Positions 30,312 to 38,643 are shown, counted from the first letter of the stretch. The stretch: 64,000 nt of DNA from an uncultured Bacilli bacterium (GCA_947632115.1 CANROB010000006.1:3844-67843); one strand, 5' to 3'. Translations and numbers: made by a program. Notes: generated from the sequence alone by a model not told the origin.

Positions 30312-30352
30312 AAAAAAAACAGAGAATGTTACCGTATTCTCTGTTTCTTTAT
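30312..30352. terminator. Bidirectional terminator between convergent genes
   Basis: ACAGAGAAT/ATTCTCTGT 9-bp stem flanked by A8 on one side and a T-rich run on the other. Confidence 0.65.
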
Positions 30353-31398
30353 TTTTTAATTAGAATAGCTAAATCATTTTTAGCAGTACTCATTCCATAA
30401 CCTGAATGATTGGTAGCTATTTCTTTGATTTCAAATTCTTTTTTTAAATCTTGTAAAAGATAATGGTAAGAAACATTTTGACCTGTCCAACCAGTAAAAT
30501 ATTTCTCTAACATATCAAGACCACTTAAGATATCTGAACTAGGTGCCCAACCATTAGGATCACTTTTTAGTTTTTCCTCAATAAAGGTATCTACTTCTTC
30601 ATCATATCGACAAAGATAAGCACCCATCATTATCCCGTGCTCTTTTAGTCTAGGAAGTAATACTTGTTTGATAAAAGTAGTATACTTTTTAGCGTTTTCC
30701 CGGCTTACTTCTTCTCCAAAATTTAAATACTCATAAATATTGGATAAGATGATACTATCATAATTCACTCCTTCTGGAAGCGTTTTTCCTAGGTCATAGA
30801 AATCACTTTCGATAAAATGCCAGTTTGCCTCTCGTACTCGTTTTTGGGTTTGATAATAAGTTTCATTATTGCGGTAATACCCATTAACGACTTGGGCAAG
30901 TTTTCCATGCTTCTTAGGAGAGCGGAATAACTCTTCTGATAAATAGTATGCATTATAACGAAAATATTCATATAAAATATCCCAAAAAAGACGAATCGGA
31001 AGAGCAAGTTCTTTTTGTACTTTTTGATAAAGACGATATTCCATGATATTTCCATTATTTTCAGCAATCATAAAATCTAGAAAATCTCTTCGACGGAGAG
31101 TTGCAAGCGCAACTCTTTTAAGTTCTAGAAAATAGATGTCCGCTTTATTGATATCAAAAAAATAAACATCTTTCGCGCCCTTTAAAGTAGCGGCAATTCC
31201 TTGATCAGCAGAAGCGCCAATTGTAAGAGTGGTATCAAAGGAAGAGGACATTTCTTCCGTATATGTCTTTACATCTTCTGTTGTGATATTGTAAAGACGG
31301 CAGTACCTTCCAAACTCACTATCCCAACCATCTCTTACGCCCTGAATCATCATAAGGGCATCTTTTTTTGCCTCTATCATATTTGGTAAAGTGATCAT
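30349..31398 (-). CDS. DUF3419 (BtaA-like, SAM-dependent methyltransferase fold) family protein
   Basis: TLTIGASADQGIAATLKGAKDVYFFDINKADIYFLELKRVALATLRRRDFLDFM matches the pattern I remember for DUF3419 (I.SaGdn...vDlN..Q..LleLK). Confidence 0.55.
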   Translation of the reverse strand: MITLPNMIEAKKDALMMIQGVRDGWDSEFGRYCRLYNITTEDVKTYTEEMSSSFDTTLTIGASADQGIAATLKGAKDVYFFDINKADIYFLELKRVALATLRRRDFLDFMIAENNGNIMEYRLYQKVQKELALPIRLFWDILYEYFRYNAYYLSEELFRSPKKHGKLAQVVNGYYRNNETYYQTQKRVREANWHFIESDFYDLGKTLPEGVNYDSIILSNIYEYLNFGEEVSRENAKKYTTFIKQVLLPRLKEHGIMMGAYLCRYDEEVDTFIEEKLKSDPNGWAPSSDILSGLDMLEKYFTGWTGQNVSYHYLLQDLKKEFEIKEIATNHSGYGMSTAKNDLAILIKK

Positions 31399-31490
31399 GT
31401 TCTACCCCCCCTAAAACTGCGGATTATTATAATAAGTTTTCTTCCAAAAGTCAAATGTTATGGTATAATAATTTTAGAAAGGGGATTCTT

Positions 31491-32168
31491 ATGATTAAAA
31501 CCAAAAAACAAGGATCTTTGATTATTATTTCTGGTACAACCTGTGCGGGAAAGGGAACGGTTATTAAAAAATTATTAGAACGTCATAACGATATTGTGTT
31601 ATCGATATCTTATACTTCTCGTCCAAAGCGGGAAAGTGAAGTAGATGGCGTTGATTATTATTTTGTGACAGAAGAAGAGTTTGAAAAGAAAATCGCTAAT
31701 GATGATTTTTTGGAATACGCGAAAGTACAATATGGAGCTTACTATGGAACACCAAAAGCGGAGATTATCAAGCAATTAGATACAGGAAAAGATGTCATCT
31801 TAGAAATCGATGTACAAGGTGCGAAACAAATTAAAGAAAAATTTCCAGAAACCATTTTAATCTTTATTATGGCTCCTAGTATGGAAGAAGTAAAAAGAAG
31901 AATTGAAATGCGAGGAGATGAAAATCAGGAACAGATTATCTCTCGCTTTAAAAGGGCTTATCAGGAGATTAATCAGTATACGAATTATAACTATGTCGTT
32001 GTCAATGACGACCTAAAGGAGTCTGTTGATAAAGTAGAAGCAATTTTAGTAAGTGAGAAACTCAGAGTAGATCGTATTGAAGAACTCTCTTTAGAAAATG
32101 AAGAAGAGATGATTCACGAACTTTTAATGGAAAAAGATTTTCCAAATGAACATATACAAATTCAATAA
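31491..32168 (+). CDS. gmk: Guanylate kinase-like protein
   Basis: P-loop SGTTCAGKGT, YTSRPKRESEVDGVDYYFV (the GMP-binding S.T.R..R..E..G.dY.F pattern) and FLEYAKVQYGAYYGT. AAAGGGGA RBS. TGgTATAAT at 31461-31469 lies inside the track ORF that starts at 31455. Confidence 0.75.
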   Translation: MIKTKKQGSLIIISGTTCAGKGTVIKKLLERHNDIVLSISYTSRPKRESEVDGVDYYFVTEEEFEKKIANDDFLEYAKVQYGAYYGTPKAEIIKQLDTGKDVILEIDVQGAKQIKEKFPETILIFIMAPSMEEVKRRIEMRGDENQEQIISRFKRAYQEINQYTNYNYVVVNDDLKESVDKVEAILVSEKLRVDRIEELSLENEEEMIHELLMEKDFPNEHIQIQ

Positions 32169-32181
32169 AAAGGAGTAGTTT

Positions 32182-34044
32182 ATGGTATTTAAGTGTAAGA
32201 TGTGTGGGGGAGATATTGAACTAGTAGAGGGTACAAATACGGGTAAGTGTTTGTATTGTAAAAGCACAATGACTCTACCTACTGTAGAGGATGAAAGAAT
32301 TCTAAACTTATACAATCGAGCAAATGATTTACGACTAGAAAATGAGTTTGATAAAGCTTATGCAACGTATGAATCTATTTTGGAGTTAGATAATGAACAA
32401 GTAGAGGCTCATTGGGGATTAATCTTATGTAAATATGGAGTAGAGTATGTAGATGACCCTAAGACTAAAAAGAAAATTCCTACTTGCCATAGGACCAATT
32501 ATGAATCTATTTTCGATGATGTTCATTACAAAGTAGTAAAAGAAAAATCTTATGGCGAAGCTTTGAAACTCTATGAAAAAGAAGCGAAAAAGATTCAAGA
32601 TATTCAAAAAGGAATTCTAGAGATTTCCTCTAAGGAAGAGCCTTATGATATCTTTATCTGTTATAAGGAGACGGATAATAATGGAGAAAGAACCCATGAT
32701 AGCGTTATGGCAGAAGATATCTATGAAGCCTTAACAAAAGAAGGGTATAAAGTTTTCTTCTCTAGAATTACCCTAGAAGATAAATTAGGAACAGAATACG
32801 AACCTTATATCTTCTCTGCTTTAAATAGTGCGAAAGTGATGTTGGTTGTTGGAACATCTTCTGAAAACTTAGAGGCAGTATGGGTAAAAAATGAGTGGAG
32901 TCGTTATTTAGACTTTATGAAAAAGGATAAATCGAAAACGCTTATTCCTGTTTATAGTAAAATGGATGCTTATAAACTTCCAGAAAGTTTTGCGATGTTG
33001 CAAGCTCAAAATATGGATAAAGTAGGGGCAATGCAAGATCTTGTTCGTGGTATTAAAAAGATTATGAATGCCAAAAAAGAAACTAAATCATCCAATGTCA
33101 CGGAAGAGATGTATCACCAGTTTAAAGAGCGTATGGAAGATGAAGAAAGCTCTGTGATTGGAAATGAAAAGCGATATGCTACCAATGTTTTAAAGGAAAA
33201 AATAGGAAAAGGGTTTATTGGAATTACTTTATTAGTATCTTTCCTAATGGCAATTTGGATGGCAGGATTTTTAGCTTCCTATACAATATCTAATTCAGTA
33301 GGATCCTTCCGATATAGTGACGTTTTGGCATATACTTTTCGGGAGAGGGCTAGTCTCATTCAGATAACTGTTGGATTTATTACTTTAATTTCCTTTTTTA
33401 TAGGGCTTTTATCTAGAAAGATGAATAAGGTATCTAAAATTTTATATCTCGTTAATTTTGCTTTAGAAGGTTATTTTTTATTTTTGATTCATTCTTGTGG
33501 ATTTAAGTCAAGTGCTTACATTTTGATTTTAGTTGGTCTTAATTTAATTTTATTCTTATTAAGACCAAGATGGCAGTTATCGACTAATATGTTGATGTTG
33601 AATAAGAAGAATAAGGAAATGCAAGAAGAGAAAAATAGAAAGTTAAAAGAAAAATTTGTCGAAAAAGAAAAGTTTGCCATTCACCCTATATTTTATGGAG
33701 TAGCATTCATTCTACTACTCTTCATTGGCTTTCAGTTAATAAGACCTGTTCCTATTCAATCCAATAAGAGAAATTCAAAGATAGATCAGATTAAAGTTCT
33801 TGAACAAATGGATTTATATGAAAATACACAAGATAGTTGGAGACATTCCGTAGCTACTTTATTTCCTGGAGAAATTTATGATGTGATTAGTACACGTATT
33901 GACGAGGATGGGTATCAACGGTCAATAGAAATTCAAACGAGTTTAGGAGTTCATGGCTATATCGCATCTCAATATAGTTCCTGTGTTAACGGAGAATGTG
34001 AGTATAGTGATGACCGTTTTCAAATTTTACCTAAAGAAGAGTAA
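32182..34044 (+). CDS. Zn-ribbon / TIR domain / 5-TM / C-terminal SH3b-like membrane protein (paralog 1)
   Basis: CKMCGG...CLYCKS ribbon. TIR-like core at residues ~155-290: YDIFICYKETD, KVFFSR, VMLVVGTSS, WVKNEWSRYL. Five hydrophobic helices between residues ~345 and 525. The C-terminal IYDVIS...GVHGYIASQY is SH3b-like. Confidence 0.8.
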   Translation: MVFKCKMCGGDIELVEGTNTGKCLYCKSTMTLPTVEDERILNLYNRANDLRLENEFDKAYATYESILELDNEQVEAHWGLILCKYGVEYVDDPKTKKKIPTCHRTNYESIFDDVHYKVVKEKSYGEALKLYEKEAKKIQDIQKGILEISSKEEPYDIFICYKETDNNGERTHDSVMAEDIYEALTKEGYKVFFSRITLEDKLGTEYEPYIFSALNSAKVMLVVGTSSENLEAVWVKNEWSRYLDFMKKDKSKTLIPVYSKMDAYKLPESFAMLQAQNMDKVGAMQDLVRGIKKIMNAKKETKSSNVTEEMYHQFKERMEDEESSVIGNEKRYATNVLKEKIGKGFIGITLLVSFLMAIWMAGFLASYTISNSVGSFRYSDVLAYTFRERASLIQITVGFITLISFFIGLLSRKMNKVSKILYLVNFALEGYFLFLIHSCGFKSSAYILILVGLNLILFLLRPRWQLSTNMLMLNKKNKEMQEEKNRKLKEKFVEKEKFAIHPIFYGVAFILLLFIGFQLIRPVPIQSNKRNSKIDQIKVLEQMDLYENTQDSWRHSVATLFPGEIYDVISTRIDEDGYQRSIEIQTSLGVHGYIASQYSSCVNGECEYSDDRFQILPKEE

Positions 34045-34056
34045 GAGGAGTAGTTT

Positions 34057-36150
34057 ATGATATTGAAGTGTAAGATGTGTGGGGGAGATATTGAACCGAT
34101 AGAAGGAACGAATACCGGTAAGTGTATCTACTGTAAAAGTGTTATGACACTTCCCTCATTAGAAGATGAAAAAATAGTAAATTTATATAATCGTGCGAAT
34201 AAATTGCGATTAGATAATGAGTTTGATAAAGCTTATGAAATCTATGAATCCATTTTAAAAATGGATGAAGAACAAGTAGAAGCCCACTGGGGATTAGTCC
34301 TTTGTAAGTATGGAATTGAATATGTAGATGATCCTAGAACTAAGAAAAAAGTACCTACTTGTCATCGTGCCAATTATGAATCTGTTTTAGTCAATTCTGA
34401 TTATCTTTTTGTTAAAGAACATTCTTATGGTGAGGCATTAAAGTTATATGAAGAAGAAGCTAAATATATTCAAAAGGTTCAAAAAAGAATCTTAGATATT
34501 TCATCCAAAGAAGAACCTTATGATATCTTTATCTGTTATAAGGAAACTGATAGTGATGGAGAAAGAACAAAAGATAGTGTGCTTGCGCAAGATATTTATC
34601 AGGCTTTAACAAAAGAAGGATATAAGGTTTTCTTTTCAAGAATTACCTTAGAAGATAAACTAGGAACAGAATATGAACCTTATATCTTCTCAGCTTTAAA
34701 TAGTGCGAAAGTAATGTTGGTGGTTGGAACGTCTTCTGAAAATTTAGAGGCAGTGTGGGTAAAAAATGAGTGGAGCCGTTACTTAAGCTTCATGAAAGAG
34801 GATACTTCTAAATCTTTAGTACCTGTTTATAGTAACATGGATGCTTATGAACTTCCTGAGGCATTTTCAATGTTACAAGCCCAAAATATGGATAAAGTAG
34901 GGGCAATGCAGGACCTTGTTCGTGGTATCGAAAAGTTGATGTCTTCTACCAAAACAAAGAAGAAACAGTCTTTAGATAAGAAGACAACAAAGCAAGTTCA
35001 AGAAGTATTAGAAGGAATCACTAGTTTAGGAAATAATCGATATGAGGTTACGATTGTAAAGGAAAAAAGAGCGACTTGGTATTATGTTTTTGTTATCGTA
35101 GTAGTTTCTATTTTCTTGTTTAATAGTTTGCTTGCTGTAGCTGGAGGAAATGGCGGATTTTCCATTGGACTTTCAGATACTCAGGAAATGTTATTCAATA
35201 TTTTAGTTGGAAGTAGGAGTTTAAATTACGTTTCTGATGGATTAGTAGCTTTACAATTTTTAATTTGTGTTACGATGGTTGTTTCCGGATTCCTTAAGAT
35301 GCGTACGCGTAAACTAGTTCGTATCTCTAATTATGTAATGCTTGGTACTTTTCTTTTAGAATTTATTTTAATAGAAATTTCTATGAAATACTTCGCTATC
35401 CCTTGTATCCTTTATTGGTTTACGGTTTCTTTATCTTTTATTCTCTTTTTGGTCAATCCTTCTTGGAATCTAGATACTAGTACGAAAACGATTGTTGAAG
35501 GAGAAGAAAAAGACAAATTATTAGTAAAAAATAAAGCGATTCGGGAGAATTTTACGAAAAAAGATAAATTTCCTCTTCTAAAAAAGTGCTTTATTCTTGG
35601 AATGGTGTTGTGTATTGTTATTTATGGAGGGACATTCTTCCATACGATTTTATCTAAATATGGAAATGCTCGTGATGAATCTAAGGCCCAGATGGAAATT
35701 GTTTCTTCCTATATGGCTGTAAGAGATGACTATAATCAGGTCGTAGGAATTGCGAAAAAAGGGGAAATTTATACGATTTTATCCATTTCCTATGATCGCT
35801 CTGAGTCATGTTTTGAAATCGAACAAAGTAATCACGTGAAAGGAACTATTTGTGGAAGTGCAGCAAGCTTTAAAATGTTAGCTGGACAGGGAAATGAAAG
35901 AGATACCTCTTTAAGACAATTAGAGGTTACTTATGATTTTATTCGCATTCGAGGAGAAAGTTCTATTTATGGCGATATTTTAGGACAGGTTTCTGAAGGA
36001 GAAATTTATACGATTTTAGAAGATAAAAAACAGTATGATGGAACACACTGGTATAAAATTAAAACAAATTATGGTTTAACAGGATATATTTATTCTGGAG
36101 ATGATGGTGAGTATGTAAAAGTATTAGAGCCAGAGAAAGGAGAAAAGTAA
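34057..36150 (+). CDS. Zn-ribbon / TIR domain / 5-TM / two C-terminal SH3b-like modules (paralog 2)
   Basis: Same N-terminal ~300 aa as paralog 1, including an identical 56-aa stretch. Divergent TM block. The C-terminus has two SH3b-like units (GEIYTILS...VKGTICGS and GEIYTILE...GLTGYIYS). Confidence 0.8.
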   Translation: MILKCKMCGGDIEPIEGTNTGKCIYCKSVMTLPSLEDEKIVNLYNRANKLRLDNEFDKAYEIYESILKMDEEQVEAHWGLVLCKYGIEYVDDPRTKKKVPTCHRANYESVLVNSDYLFVKEHSYGEALKLYEEEAKYIQKVQKRILDISSKEEPYDIFICYKETDSDGERTKDSVLAQDIYQALTKEGYKVFFSRITLEDKLGTEYEPYIFSALNSAKVMLVVGTSSENLEAVWVKNEWSRYLSFMKEDTSKSLVPVYSNMDAYELPEAFSMLQAQNMDKVGAMQDLVRGIEKLMSSTKTKKKQSLDKKTTKQVQEVLEGITSLGNNRYEVTIVKEKRATWYYVFVIVVVSIFLFNSLLAVAGGNGGFSIGLSDTQEMLFNILVGSRSLNYVSDGLVALQFLICVTMVVSGFLKMRTRKLVRISNYVMLGTFLLEFILIEISMKYFAIPCILYWFTVSLSFILFLVNPSWNLDTSTKTIVEGEEKDKLLVKNKAIRENFTKKDKFPLLKKCFILGMVLCIVIYGGTFFHTILSKYGNARDESKAQMEIVSSYMAVRDDYNQVVGIAKKGEIYTILSISYDRSESCFEIEQSNHVKGTICGSAASFKMLAGQGNERDTSLRQLEVTYDFIRIRGESSIYGDILGQVSEGEIYTILEDKKQYDGTHWYKIKTNYGLTGYIYSGDDGEYVKVLEPEKGEK

Positions 36151-36151
36151 T

Positions 36152-37294
36152 ATGGCATTATTCGAGGTAATCAAAAAAGAAAAAGATGATGATAATTTTA
36201 TATGGCGATATCCCAATACAAAATTTAATACGAGTTCACAATTAATTGTTCATGAAGGACAAGAAGCTATCTTTTTTAGCAATGGAAAAGCATTAGATTT
36301 ATTTGGACCTGGTAAATATACGCTAGAGACTAATAACATTCCTTTGCTTCGAAAAGTAATCGAGATTCCAACTGGTGGAAAAAGTCCTTTCCAATGTGAA
36401 GTATACTTTGTGGATAAAGTGGAAAAATCTATGCGTTGGGGAACGAAGAGTCGGTTAGAGTTTTTAGAGCCAAAATATCAATTTCCAATTTCTATTGGAG
36501 CCTGTGGCGAGATGCGTTTTATCATTGAAGATTCTAGAAAAATCTTGTTAAAACTAGTTGGTGTGAAAAAACAATTAGATAGTGAAAATATCGATGATTT
36601 CTTTGAGTCACAAATTTTAATGAAAGTTAAAAATTACATGGCTCAAATTATTACCGAAGAGAAGATTAGTATTTTTGAAATTGATCAACAACTAGAAAAG
36701 TTTAGTGAAGAACTAAAGAAAAAACTAGAAGCTGATTTCCAAGAGTTTGGAATTAAATTAAATAAATTCTTTGTCACAACGATTGCGAAACCAGAAGATG
36801 ATAAACGCTATCTAGAATTTAAAGAATTATACTTTAAACAATCCGTTGCTCTAGCAGAGGCTGAATTAAAGCAAAAGTTAGAGTTGATTGAGGAAGATAC
36901 AAAAGCGAAAAAGGTAGTGATGTCTTCTCAAGCGGAAGCTACGAAACGGAGTCAAGAAGGTTATACTTATCAAGAAGAGAAAGCTTATCAGATAGGTCAA
37001 AAAGTAGCGGAAAATCAAGCAGTTGGTCAATTTACTAATGTGGGTGTTGGCCTTGGAATGATTAGTGGCATGGGAGGAACCATCAGCAATCAAGTTAGTA
37101 AAGAAGTAACGGGTGCTTTTGCAACTCTTAACAATGTCGTTTGTCCAAATTGTCACAAGGAATTAGAAAAAGATACTGCTTTTTGTAAATATTGTGGTAC
37201 GAAGATTGTGACCGAAAAATATTGTGGAAAATGTGGAGCAAGCCTTTCAGCAGATGCTGCCTTTTGTTCTCACTGTGGGGAAAGGATAGGTTAA
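36152..37294 (+). CDS. SPFH/Band-7 domain protein with two C-terminal zinc ribbons (COG4260, YdjI-like)
   Basis: MALFEVIKKE...FIWRYP...LIVHEGQEAIFF.NGK N-terminus, typical of the YdjI/virion-core-like SPFH family. A coiled-coil follows, then CPNCHKE..CKYCG and CGKCGAS..CSHCG. The start is 1 nt after the upstream stop. Confidence 0.75.
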   Translation: MALFEVIKKEKDDDNFIWRYPNTKFNTSSQLIVHEGQEAIFFSNGKALDLFGPGKYTLETNNIPLLRKVIEIPTGGKSPFQCEVYFVDKVEKSMRWGTKSRLEFLEPKYQFPISIGACGEMRFIIEDSRKILLKLVGVKKQLDSENIDDFFESQILMKVKNYMAQIITEEKISIFEIDQQLEKFSEELKKKLEADFQEFGIKLNKFFVTTIAKPEDDKRYLEFKELYFKQSVALAEAELKQKLELIEEDTKAKKVVMSSQAEATKRSQEGYTYQEEKAYQIGQKVAENQAVGQFTNVGVGLGMISGMGGTISNQVSKEVTGAFATLNNVVCPNCHKELEKDTAFCKYCGTKIVTEKYCGKCGASLSADAAFCSHCGERIG

Positions 37295-37295
37295 T

Positions 37296-38573
37296 ATGAA
37301 AAATAAAAAATTAATCCTCTTATCAAGTGTTGTTATCTTTGCTATTACGCTACTGATTTTGTTTGTCCTACCATACGAAGGAAAGAATTTTAAAATTATT
37401 ACATCAAGGGATAGTGATGCTTACCAATATGCGAAAAAAGAATCCATCCAAGTAGAAGAGGTTGCTGATTCAGAAAAAGATTTTTATACGGAAAAGAAAG
37501 AAAACTTTTCTTATGATCGCTATCAAGAGGGGATTGTCATTACCGGCTATCAAGGAAAGAGCAAGGAATTAGTAATTCCTAAAATGATTGATGGAAAGTT
37601 TGTTCTTGCTATTCAAAAAGATGCTTTCAAAAACGATGAAAATTTAACCAAAGTCATTTTTCCAAAAACGTTATTGATGATTGAAAAAGAAGATTATAAA
37701 GAAATAGAAATTGCTTGTTATCGCTCTAGTCTTTGTAATGAATTAAAAGAAGATGATGATTTTAAAGTAACGGTTTTAAGTGATTCTGATACATATTCTT
37801 TTACAGATTCTTCTTTAACTTTTGAATATAATATTGGAGATTCTATTGAAATTGTAAAATATACAGGTTCTTCTTTAGATATTGTTATTCCAGAAACGAT
37901 TAATGGTTATGAAGTAACAGAGGTTCACTTAACCGTAGAGAAAGATTTAAATAGTATTTATTTACCAAAAACAGTAACCAATATGAGTCTTCAATACGCT
38001 GAAAAAGTTTATCCTAGTACTTTTTGGTTTACAGTAGTAATGACATTCATTAGTTTACTTCTCTTTATTGGGGTAATGATTTCTGCATCTTTAAAAGATA
38101 AGAAAGATATCTTCTATCAAGCTCCTATTATGATGATTTCTTATCTTTACTTAATTGGTATTTATGGTTACTCTATTTATGCAAATGTGACAAACCAAAA
38201 TATGAAAACGGTGATTTTGGTTCAAGTAATAGTCGCGCTTCTTTATCTAGTTTTAGCGATGTTCTTATTAGCTAGTAAAAAACGAATTAGAGATTATGAT
38301 GAAAAAATCGCTAAAAGTACCTCTTATATCCAAGATACGTTAGAATTATTGGAAGAGATAGATTTATCCAATTATGAGGAAGAGATTAAAAGAGAAGTAG
38401 AAGAGGTAAAAGAACTTATTCGCTACTCAGATCCTGTTACAAGTCCAAAAACAGAGGATATGGAACAACAAATTCAAAAAATGATTCAAGAGTGTGGAAA
38501 CGAAAAAGAGGATTGGGAAAAAGTCAAAGCGACGATTAAAAAGAGAAATCGTATATGTAAGGAAAGTAAATAA
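37296..38573 (+). CDS. BspA-type leucine-rich-repeat membrane protein with a cytoplasmic coiled-coil tail
   Basis: N-terminal anchor. LRR_5-like units (LVIPKMIDGKFVLAIQKDAFKN..NLTKVIFPKTL; LDIVIPETINGYEVTEV). Three further TM helices and a helical acidic C-terminus. The start is 1 nt after the upstream stop. Confidence 0.65.
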   Translation: MKNKKLILLSSVVIFAITLLILFVLPYEGKNFKIITSRDSDAYQYAKKESIQVEEVADSEKDFYTEKKENFSYDRYQEGIVITGYQGKSKELVIPKMIDGKFVLAIQKDAFKNDENLTKVIFPKTLLMIEKEDYKEIEIACYRSSLCNELKEDDDFKVTVLSDSDTYSFTDSSLTFEYNIGDSIEIVKYTGSSLDIVIPETINGYEVTEVHLTVEKDLNSIYLPKTVTNMSLQYAEKVYPSTFWFTVVMTFISLLLFIGVMISASLKDKKDIFYQAPIMMISYLYLIGIYGYSIYANVTNQNMKTVILVQVIVALLYLVLAMFLLASKKRIRDYDEKIAKSTSYIQDTLELLEEIDLSNYEEEIKREVEEVKELIRYSDPVTSPKTEDMEQQIQKMIQECGNEKEDWEKVKATIKKRNRICKESK

Positions 38574-38598
38574 AGTATATTTTCGAATATACTTTTTT
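38573..38598 (+). terminator. Rho-independent terminator closing the TIR operon
   Basis: AAGTATATT-ttcg-AATATACTT 9-bp stem followed by T6. Confidence 0.8.
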
Positions 38599-38643
38599 CT
38601 TTTCTTTCTTTAGGAATTGATATATAATGAAAATGGTGATTCT

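Follow-up and report, generated by a model that had tools for sequence, protein, structure and literature searches.

Enzymatic TIR domains are represented by SARM1, AbTir, plant RUN1/L7, the SPARTA TIR-APAZ protein and ThsB of Thoeris, and to our knowledge the bacterial TIR systems all sense infection inside the cell. Toll-like and interleukin-1 (IL-1) receptors combine an outer binding domain, a membrane span and an inner TIR domain, and occur as several paralogs with differing outer parts. YdjI/SamI of Bacillus subtilis consists of a Band_7_1 SPFH domain with C-terminal zinc ribbons and is encoded next to membrane proteins (PMC11237479), and membrane proteins recruit it (PMC13713150; cf. PMC8581546). 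The membrane component of the GAP1-N2 GTPase systems has N-terminal zinc ribbons, an enzyme, four plus one transmembrane (TM) helices, and SH3, PEGA or wall-binding domains beyond them (Kaur et al. 2020, PMC7159879). Here we describe two adjacent TIR genes, T1 and T2, on a stretch of 64,000 nucleotides (nt) from an uncultured Bacilli bacterium (GCA_947632115.1 CANROB010000006.1:3844-67843), which is called the window below. Together with two further genes, S and M, they form a cassette with the following parts.

32182..34044, plus strand: T1 (paralog 1, P1, c1 type), an open reading frame (ORF) of 620 residues
34057..36150, plus strand: T2 (paralog 2, P2, c2 type), an ORF of 697 residues with the T1 layout but two SH3b modules outside
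36152..37294, plus strand: S, a soluble SPFH protein (Band_7_1, expectation value (E) 3.8e-39) with a C-terminal double zinc ribbon and no TM segment
37296..38573, plus strand: M, a membrane protein encoded by a four-TM gene, with TM helices and a cytoplasmic helical tail that contains RYSDP
32169..38616, plus strand: the T1-T2-S-M cassette, a 6.4-kb insertion between gmk and orf208, as defined by gene gaps and empty sites

We consider it probable that T1 and T2 have long been retained as part of a surface-sensing TIR array on an SPFH platform, with module exchange at the linker, although the function is one that we infer. An earlier reading made from the window alone, referred to below as the sequence-only reading, had described the pair as old tandem paralogs with an effector half frozen by purifying selection and a diverged membrane and sensor half.

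The T proteins share with the enzymatic TIR systems the TIR_2 family, the fold and a W-x-x-x-E motif. They differ in having a zinc ribbon and TPR-like helices before the TIR domain and a five-TM chassis with SH3b modules after it, and the cassette has no ThsA-type, SAVED, STING or Argonaute partner. None of the neighbour genes scanned with PADLOC matched a Thoeris effector model. The NCBIfam Thoeris and retron-TIR models reached 18-25 bits against cut-offs of 220-600 (18.8-21.4 against 220 for ThcB4), no PADLOC model spanned a whole T protein, and Rst_2TM_1TM_TIR was not among the PADLOC matches. The likeness to the animal Toll-like and IL-1 receptors is one of analogy and not of membership, with no homology beyond the TIR fold. 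The T proteins have five predicted TM helices instead of one, SH3b modules instead of leucine-rich repeats (LRRs) or immunoglobulin domains, and an N-terminal TIR domain that is probably enzymatic.

The GAP1-N2 membrane component has the same chassis as T1 and T2, but its enzyme is a GTPase and its partners are GAP1, tubulin, vWA or HSP70; TIR domains, S and M do not belong to those systems as described there. As in PspA-SamGHI (YdjGHI), S has the Band_7_1 and zinc-ribbon design and its gene lies next to membrane-protein genes. The membrane partner with N-terminal zinc ribbons is YdjG in B. subtilis and the T proteins here, which additionally bear TIR and SH3b domains. There was no pspA within the cassette. 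No YdjH-type TPM domain was reported in the five M proteins scanned at E <= 1, and no family reached its cut-off in them. In the portions of the literature available to our searches, which included PMC7075850 and had subscription journals and supplements outside their scope, neither a TIR-SPFH cassette nor a TIR-SH3b family was described.

Architecture of the T proteins and their cassette

The AlphaFold2 models of the two proteins showed the same layout, with predicted local distance difference test (pLDDT) scores of 86.4 for T2 and 81.4 for T1. Along T1, a zinc ribbon, TPR-like helices and the TIR domain are followed by a linker, TM1-4, a basic loop, TM5 and a single outer beta module. In the T2 model, the parts up to the fifth TM helix were as follows.

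T2 residues 11-31: zinc ribbon
T2 residues 38-84: TPR-like helices
T2 residues 87-102: hairpin
T2, to residue 151: long helices
T2 residues 157-300: TIR domain
T2, after the TIR domain: low-confidence, disordered linker
T2 residues 321-338: beta hairpin
T2 residues 340-465: four TM helices
T2 residues 469-481: strand with the invariant Trp470
T2 residues 482-497: basic helix
T2 residues 509-532: fifth TM helix

The domains that carry the comparison were placed on the window as follows.

32650..33069, plus strand: TIR domain of T1, residues 157-296 (Pfam, AlphaFold2), including WVKNEW with E238 at 32893-32895
33208..33741, plus strand: membrane chassis of T1, residues 343-520, with TM1-4, juxtamembrane strand, basic helix and TM5 (AlphaFold2, hydropathy)
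35074..35652, plus strand: membrane chassis of T2, residues 340-532 (AlphaFold2 model, hydropathy)
33787..34029, plus strand: single outer beta module of T1, residues 536-616 (model strands; SH3b-like by family homology only)
35689..36126, plus strand: outer SH3b modules of T2, residues 545-607 and 621-690 (model, Pfam, Foldseek match 4krt)

The two C halves keep a common architecture, in which four TM helices are followed by a basic loop, one more TM helix and an SH3b-type outer part. The basic loops at 414-422 and 467-504 (T2 numbering), which are predicted to face the cytoplasm, and the Cys-rich N terminus suit a predicted topology with an internal N terminus and an external C terminus. The T proteins have no signal peptide. 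In the N-terminal zinc ribbon, three cysteines were invariant and one near-invariant. Further along, in residues 77-103 (32410-32490 in T1, 34285-34365 in T2), His77, Cys83 and His103 were nearly invariant and Cys102 invariant throughout the family. These four residues flank the predicted hairpin 87-102 and may make up a second metal site beside the zinc ribbon.

The TIR domain was recognized by the Pfam family TIR_2 (PF13676, cut-off 28 bits), with 43.6 bits in T1 (residues 157-275) and 40.6 bits in T2. The modelled fold is the flavodoxin-like one of TIR domains, and Foldseek matched it to AbTir (7uxu; TMt 0.75, root-mean-square deviation 3.4-3.5) and to the SARM1 TIR domain (TMt 0.69-0.72). 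W234, V235, K236, N237, E238 and W239 were invariant in every one of the sequences aligned (66 of 66 and 64 of 64). We take the W-x-x-x-E motif within them to be the catalytic glutamate motif of enzymatic TIR domains, with E238 as its glutamate; the predicted alpha-C helix (residues 233-248) begins at this motif.

The outer parts of the two proteins differ in the number of modules. The sequence-only reading had counted one SH3b-like module in P1 and two in P2; this agreed with the beta modules of the AlphaFold2 models, whereas Pfam recognized SH3_3 (PF08239) only in P2, at residues 630-681 (33.5 bits, cut-off 27). Neither the first outer module of T2 nor the only one of T1 had a Pfam match. 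The T1 module resembled the second T2 module weakly (25% identity over 71 residues, pairwise E 4e-5). Foldseek matched the outer part of T2 to the tandem SH3 domains of the Clostridium phage endolysin 4krt (E 2.7e-7), and for the T1 model there was no SH3 chain among the matches listed. SH3b modules typically bind the cell wall.

The genes of the cassette are closely packed, with gaps of 13, 12, 1 and 1 nt along gmk-T1-T2-S-M. We clustered 80 loci by ORF, namely 79 loci of public genomes and the window. S stood beside T in 55 of them and M in 54, while every other cluster was present in at most 6 loci. When only the 34 loci whose two flanks both reach 4 kb or more were counted, S was present in 29 and S together with M in 27. 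T, S and M shared a strand, M always came directly after S, and T either followed this pair (S-M-T) or preceded it (T-S-M). The zinc ribbons of S matched Zn_Ribbon_1, DZR and related families at residues 329-379, and M had no Pfam family above cut-off. A complex prediction for S (380 residues) with T2 residues 1-300 scored 0.00 twice; run without controls, it gives no evidence either way. Apart from the genome of the window (G000), the cassette occurred in 2 of 19 genus genomes and in none of 41 further relatives. Two of the genus mates, G009 and G016, have the orf208 homologue directly behind gmk, an empty site. The cassette is accessory.

The same genes could be read as a module for envelope homeostasis or stress with a SamGHI-like logic, unconnected with immunity, in which the TIR domain would serve assembly and not NAD+ cleavage. 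The wall binding typical of SH3b modules would suit this, as would the absence of a known defence model match for S and M and a ratio of non-synonymous to synonymous substitution (dN/dS) below 1 in the outer domain. S also has the architecture of YdjI/SamI (PMC11237479), a protein recruited by membrane proteins (PMC13713150). We nevertheless regard this account as unlikely. The patchy occurrence of the cassette among the genus genomes, with clean empty sites, does not fit a core function, and PspA was not found in the genome. An assembly-only TIR domain would not need a glutamate motif that is invariant in 66 of 66 sequences, and the outer domains are freely swapped across the T family.

Histories of the inner and outer halves

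The similarity of the two genes begins at the start codon. GGAGTAGTTT precedes the ATG in both T1 and T2, and the 13 bases through ATG, GGAGTAGTTTATG, are the same, in agreement with the shared ribosome-binding site context noted earlier. The approximately 300 N-terminal residues said to be shared correspond to 81% identity across residues 1-296, referred to here as the N half. Within it, residues 188-243 of each protein form an identical string of 56 residues, encoded as follows.

32743..32910, plus strand: 56-codon block of T1, protein identical to the T2 block
34618..34785, plus strand: 56-codon block of T2, protein identical to the T1 block

Both the 56 identities and the 15 nucleotide differences, all of them synonymous, were reproduced exactly; 13 of the differences are at third positions and two at first positions of Leu codons. 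Beyond residue 297, in the C half, identity fell to 27% in a pairwise MAFFT alignment and to 21% in an alignment of 210 sequences. The proteins had been called unalignable by eye beyond about residue 300, but BLASTP produced one continuous alignment up to T1 residue 600 (51% identity, 622 columns). The C halves can thus be aligned, if weakly, and they are not conserved to the same degree as the N halves.

Strong purifying selection acts on the N half of both copies, as proposed earlier. By the Nei-Gojobori method, the T1-T2 comparison gave dN 0.115, dS 0.97 and dN/dS 0.12 for the N half and dN/dS 0.08 for the TIR region (residues 151-290), far from 1. In the 56-residue block, every difference fell on a synonymous site (15 of 35.3), and the 132.7 non-synonymous sites had none (dN 0, dS 0.63). 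The proportion of synonymous differences (pS) in the block was 0.425, compared with a saturation expectation of 0.74 +/- 0.10 under the codon usage of the window; none of 1000 simulations gave a value that low. For the C half, a T1-T2 dN/dS of 0.67 was discarded, as the pS of 0.625 was near its saturation expectation (0.73 +/- 0.04) and the alignment was weak. Ortholog pairs were therefore used for the C half. Orthologous tandem genes were available from G001, G015 and the metagenome-assembled genome (MAG) behind locus L009, with a more distant pair in L028. In six ortholog pairs, dN/dS was 0.02-0.07 in the N half, 0.22-0.52 in TM1-4 and 0.20-0.39 in the outer part, except for 0.03 in the outer part of the near-identical G001 copy of T2. 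In all six pairs, the N half had fewer non-synonymous differences relative to synonymous ones than the C half (p < 0.001 in five of them), and none of the six showed a sign of gene-wide positive selection. Purifying selection thus acts on both halves and is 5-10 times stronger on the N half. In amino-acid terms, the chassis and outer modules change 5-10 times faster than the cytoplasmic module.

The duplication is old, as had been claimed. The c1 and c2 types form separate ortholog groups and are both kept, in the same order, in four genomes. In the N half, the pS between c1 and c2 was 0.54 within the window and 0.62, 0.62 and 0.63 within the other three genomes, and 0.57-0.65 between genomes, while orthologs of the same type in the four genomes differed by only 0.11-0.50. 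The duplication therefore predates the split of these species. Since c1 and c2 are about as different within a genome as between genomes, no large recent homogenisation has taken place.

The contrast between a conserved N half and a diverged C half is real in the pair but not specific to it. Over all pairs of 72 non-redundant sequences, the median identity was 74% for the N half but 29% for the C half; these sequences were chosen as the closest to T1 and T2 and do not sample the family without bias. P1 and its orthologs had N/C identities of 99/85, 96/80, 95/76 and 88/41%. Searches returned at least about 8000 relatives with T1 and at least about 8000 with T2, and the N half alone found 3938 representatives (50% clustering) at E <= 1e-30 among 1.84 billion. 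The N module was N-terminal among the 150 matches listed (proteins of 432-1643 residues), except in P0349, where it was found at residue 383, and it was 56-63% identical across bacterial classes. Judged by these matches, the T family is widespread in gut Firmicutes, and at least two N modules were present in 18 of the 79 loci. The C-terminal domains varied: among 46 relatives, 30 had DUF6273, three RCC1, one Flg_new and one SH3_3, and 11 had only TIR or TPR families. DUF6273 was the commonest outer domain in the wider family, in Clostridia loci L012-L069 (30 of the 46 proteins). This domain has been tied to hypervariable receptor-binding proteins of phages, which are targets of diversity-generating retroelements (PMC10743442, PMC11792537).

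The two halves have incongruent histories, and it follows that C modules have been exchanged at the linker. In the N-half tree, 11 copies of this Bacilli lineage formed one clade (Shimodaira-Hasegawa-like approximate likelihood ratio test, SH-aLRT, 91) that holds three paralog groups, c1, c2 and c0, the last found in G001 and L028. In the C-half tree, the T1 group lay inside an 18-sequence clade with proteins of other lineages, and the T2 group was separated from it by the deepest starred branch and stood beside G001_c0 and P0124. The approximately unbiased (AU) test rejected a clade of the 11 local copies with the C-half data (p-AU 8.3e-10, log-likelihood difference 474) and the deep C-half grouping with the N-half data under LG+G4 (p-AU 7e-24, difference 430). 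Identities pointed the same way. The C half of T1 was 34-41% identical to proteins of other lineages and 21% to that of T2, and the C half of T2 was 47% identical to P0124. Between G001_c0 and L028_c2, windows of 20 columns were 80-100% identical up to about residue 300 and 10-25% identical thereafter. The C modules have been swapped between genes by recombination at the linker, and the T1-T2 pair is a lineage-specific N module joined to two deeply different C modules. The alternative, in which the N modules were homogenised in an ancestor, is less likely. In the TM region of T1, dS between G000 and G001 was 0.54-0.61, compared with 0.12-0.13 in the flanking parts, which suggests a further imported tract.

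These trees bear directly on the earlier explanation of the contrast. Constraint on the N half is supported, but constraint alone is insufficient to explain the pair, as the AU tests show exchange. A single old tandem duplication, with a constrained effector half, sensor halves that drifted, and neither recombination nor conversion, is in our estimate improbable. It would leave the low N-half dN/dS, the stable c1 and c2 groups of the four genomes and a paralog pS well over the ortholog values, all of which were observed. It would not leave two halves that each reject the grouping of the other, a T1 C half nearer to other lineages than to T2, a T2 C half nearer to P0124, or the sharp cliff of identity at residue 300 in G001_c0 and L028_c2.

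Recent gene conversion had been dismissed by the sequence-only reading. The pS values uphold this for any wholesale event, but a small tract was found in T2.

34732..34740, plus strand: micro gene-conversion tract in T2, codons 226-228 TCT TCT GAA, c1-type sequence in comparison with c2 orthologs

These codons read TCT TCT GAA in T2 as in all c1 copies, whereas the three other c2 orthologs have AGT GCA GAG, AGT GCG GAG or AGT ACC GAG. Compared with the G001 ortholog, the tract is changed at five of its nine bases, and at each of these it agrees with T1. The tract turned residue 227 of T2 into Ser, which is why the block is identical at 56 of 56 residues in the window; the corresponding counts are 55 of 56 in G001 and 54 of 56 in G015. 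In a comparison with G001, there were 27 sites at which the window copies agree and those of G001 differ, as opposed to 8 of the opposite kind, and 7 of the 27 sit within gene nt 676-696.

One might extend this to concerted evolution, in which repeated conversion between the tandem copies would mainly keep the N halves alike, with selection secondary. The micro-tract, the excess of 27 over 8 sites, the grouping of N halves by lineage and the lowest c1-c2 pS in the window pair would all agree with such a process. We judge it still more improbable than duplication alone. The N-half dS between the copies is about 1, and the pairs within G001, G015 and L009 are no closer than those between genomes. 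Orthologs in separate genomes, which are unable to convert each other, still show an N-half dN/dS of 0.02-0.07, and the N module keeps its 56-63% identity across bacterial classes.

Surroundings of the cassette and side observations

The left border of the cassette is a housekeeping gene, which had a strong match in all 20 genus genomes and a weak second match in one.

31455..32168, plus strand: gmk, guanylate kinase (Pfam Guanylate_kin, E 6e-50)

In G017, the closest genus mate free of the cassette, a 319-residue ORF lies between gmk and the orf208 homologue (L087:8591-9550, minus strand). It has two four-TM blocks resembling the TM1-4 chassis of T1 (29% identity over 92 residues), and its final motif, P-K-W, is similar to the invariant Trp region; it lacks TIR and SH3b. 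It is possibly a remnant, or else a chassis gene that stands by itself. To the left of gmk, the protein of a DUF3419 gene (30349-31398, minus strand) was 79% identical between G000 and G001, while the helix-turn-helix gene, gmk, S and M were 96-100% identical; the DUF3419 gene may be a second recombined tract near the cassette.

M has 425 residues in this lineage, including an extra outer N-terminal part of 213 residues, and is usually about 235 residues long. The extra part is faintly like BspA-type LRRs (LRR_5, E 0.028). The conserved core of M includes a basic, Cys-containing C terminus after the R-Y-S-D-P tail motif. A second Band_7_1 gene was found elsewhere in the genome (G000:C2:67144-67785, 63 bits, open frame of 447 residues), with no T-like gene adjoining. 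A search of the genome with the N module returned T1 and T2 only. Elsewhere in the family, the single T gene of another Bacilli MAG (L011:8001-10226) has an in-frame TAA at codon 36, where relatives have Glu or Asp, in a frame otherwise open over 742 codons. This may be a sequencing error, a fresh pseudogene or a case of read-through.

Promoter-like sites were uninformative (39 found, 45 expected). On the plus strand from gmk to the end of M, the only terminator-like site was a weak one, at 35623 within T2. Of the 43 ORFs with 150 or more residues and a stop in the window, 28 ended in TAA, 15 in TAG and none in TGA. Reading TGA as sense gained almost nothing in the window, and an in-frame TGA in the gmk of G001 precedes the codon at which this gene probably starts. 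The genome has a prfB homologue; a single TAG falls inside the match.

Weight of the reading and its meaning for TIR biology

The weakest of the functional accounts makes the T proteins host-directed factors that would disturb animal Toll-like receptor signalling in the manner reported for bacterial TIR proteins of the Tcp type. The gut habitat of these bacteria and the resemblance of the TIR fold to MAL and MyD88 as well would agree with it, but we give it very little credibility. Prediction places the TIR domain on the cytoplasmic side of a five-TM chassis, the proteins start with a zinc ribbon and no signal peptide, and the linkage to an SPFH scaffold and a four-TM protein points inside the bacterial cell.

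Our preferred reading, a surface-sensing TIR array on an SPFH platform with exchanged modules, has several results weighing against it. The catalytic role of E238 is drawn from the W-x-x-x-E motif and from its place at the start of a predicted helix. Searches of the PDB by sequence, with phmmer (N half) and with hmmsearch (alignment of the N module), aligned no TIR chain; the matches, at about residues 43-83 (E 0.003-0.02), were all TPR-like. In PADLOC, T1 and T2 had only weak matches at the TIR level (RT-TIR_XII, PDC-S66; E 3e-4 to 5e-4), and S and M matched none of 5027 models at E <= 0.01. PspA is the partner of the related SPFH protein of B. subtilis, and no PspA_IM30 (PF04012) match was found in G000, which is 95.8% complete. 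The N module had no match (E <= 1e-5) in 50,697 phage and 72,556 plasmid records; with no phage or plasmid relative found, the mobility of the cassette is drawn from its patchy distribution and the empty sites. The SH-aLRT of 91 for the N-half clade falls under the threshold for a starred branch, and, the lineage being AT-rich, similar amino-acid compositions might also contribute to that clade. Finally, the outer part, with dN/dS below 1, carries no sign of an arms race at this resolution.

With these points taken into account, we propose the following mechanism for the array. The outer SH3b modules would report a cell-wall or surface event through the chassis. The event would drive association of the TIR domains on a platform of soluble S and membrane-bound M, and the TIR domains might then cleave NAD+ or make a nucleotide signal. 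The output would be a defence response or an envelope alarm. Tandem copies with different outer halves would widen the range of sensing, and the paired receptors of different specificity suggested by the sequence-only reading fit the architecture.

A bolder proposal, which we advance tentatively and consider rather doubtful, is that T-S-M is a bacterial counterpart of Toll-like receptor signalling. Swappable outer domains (SH3b here; DUF6273, RCC1 and others elsewhere) would detect phage contact or wall damage and act through an enzymatic TIR domain on a flotillin-like SPFH platform, and the module-exchanged paralogs would make up a repertoire of specificities.

The T family joins a strongly conserved and probably catalytic TIR module to a membrane chassis with swappable outer binding domains, and an SPFH scaffold gene accompanies it in most of the fully flanked loci. 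If the proposed function is true, TIR immunity would have a branch that senses at the surface, or the family would be an envelope alarm built on TIR domains. T1 and T2 are a clean natural experiment in this respect, in which one inner module is combined with two different outer ones and orthologs are at hand from another three genomes. The pair shows that repertoires are built by recombination at the linker, and not merely by drift after duplication.

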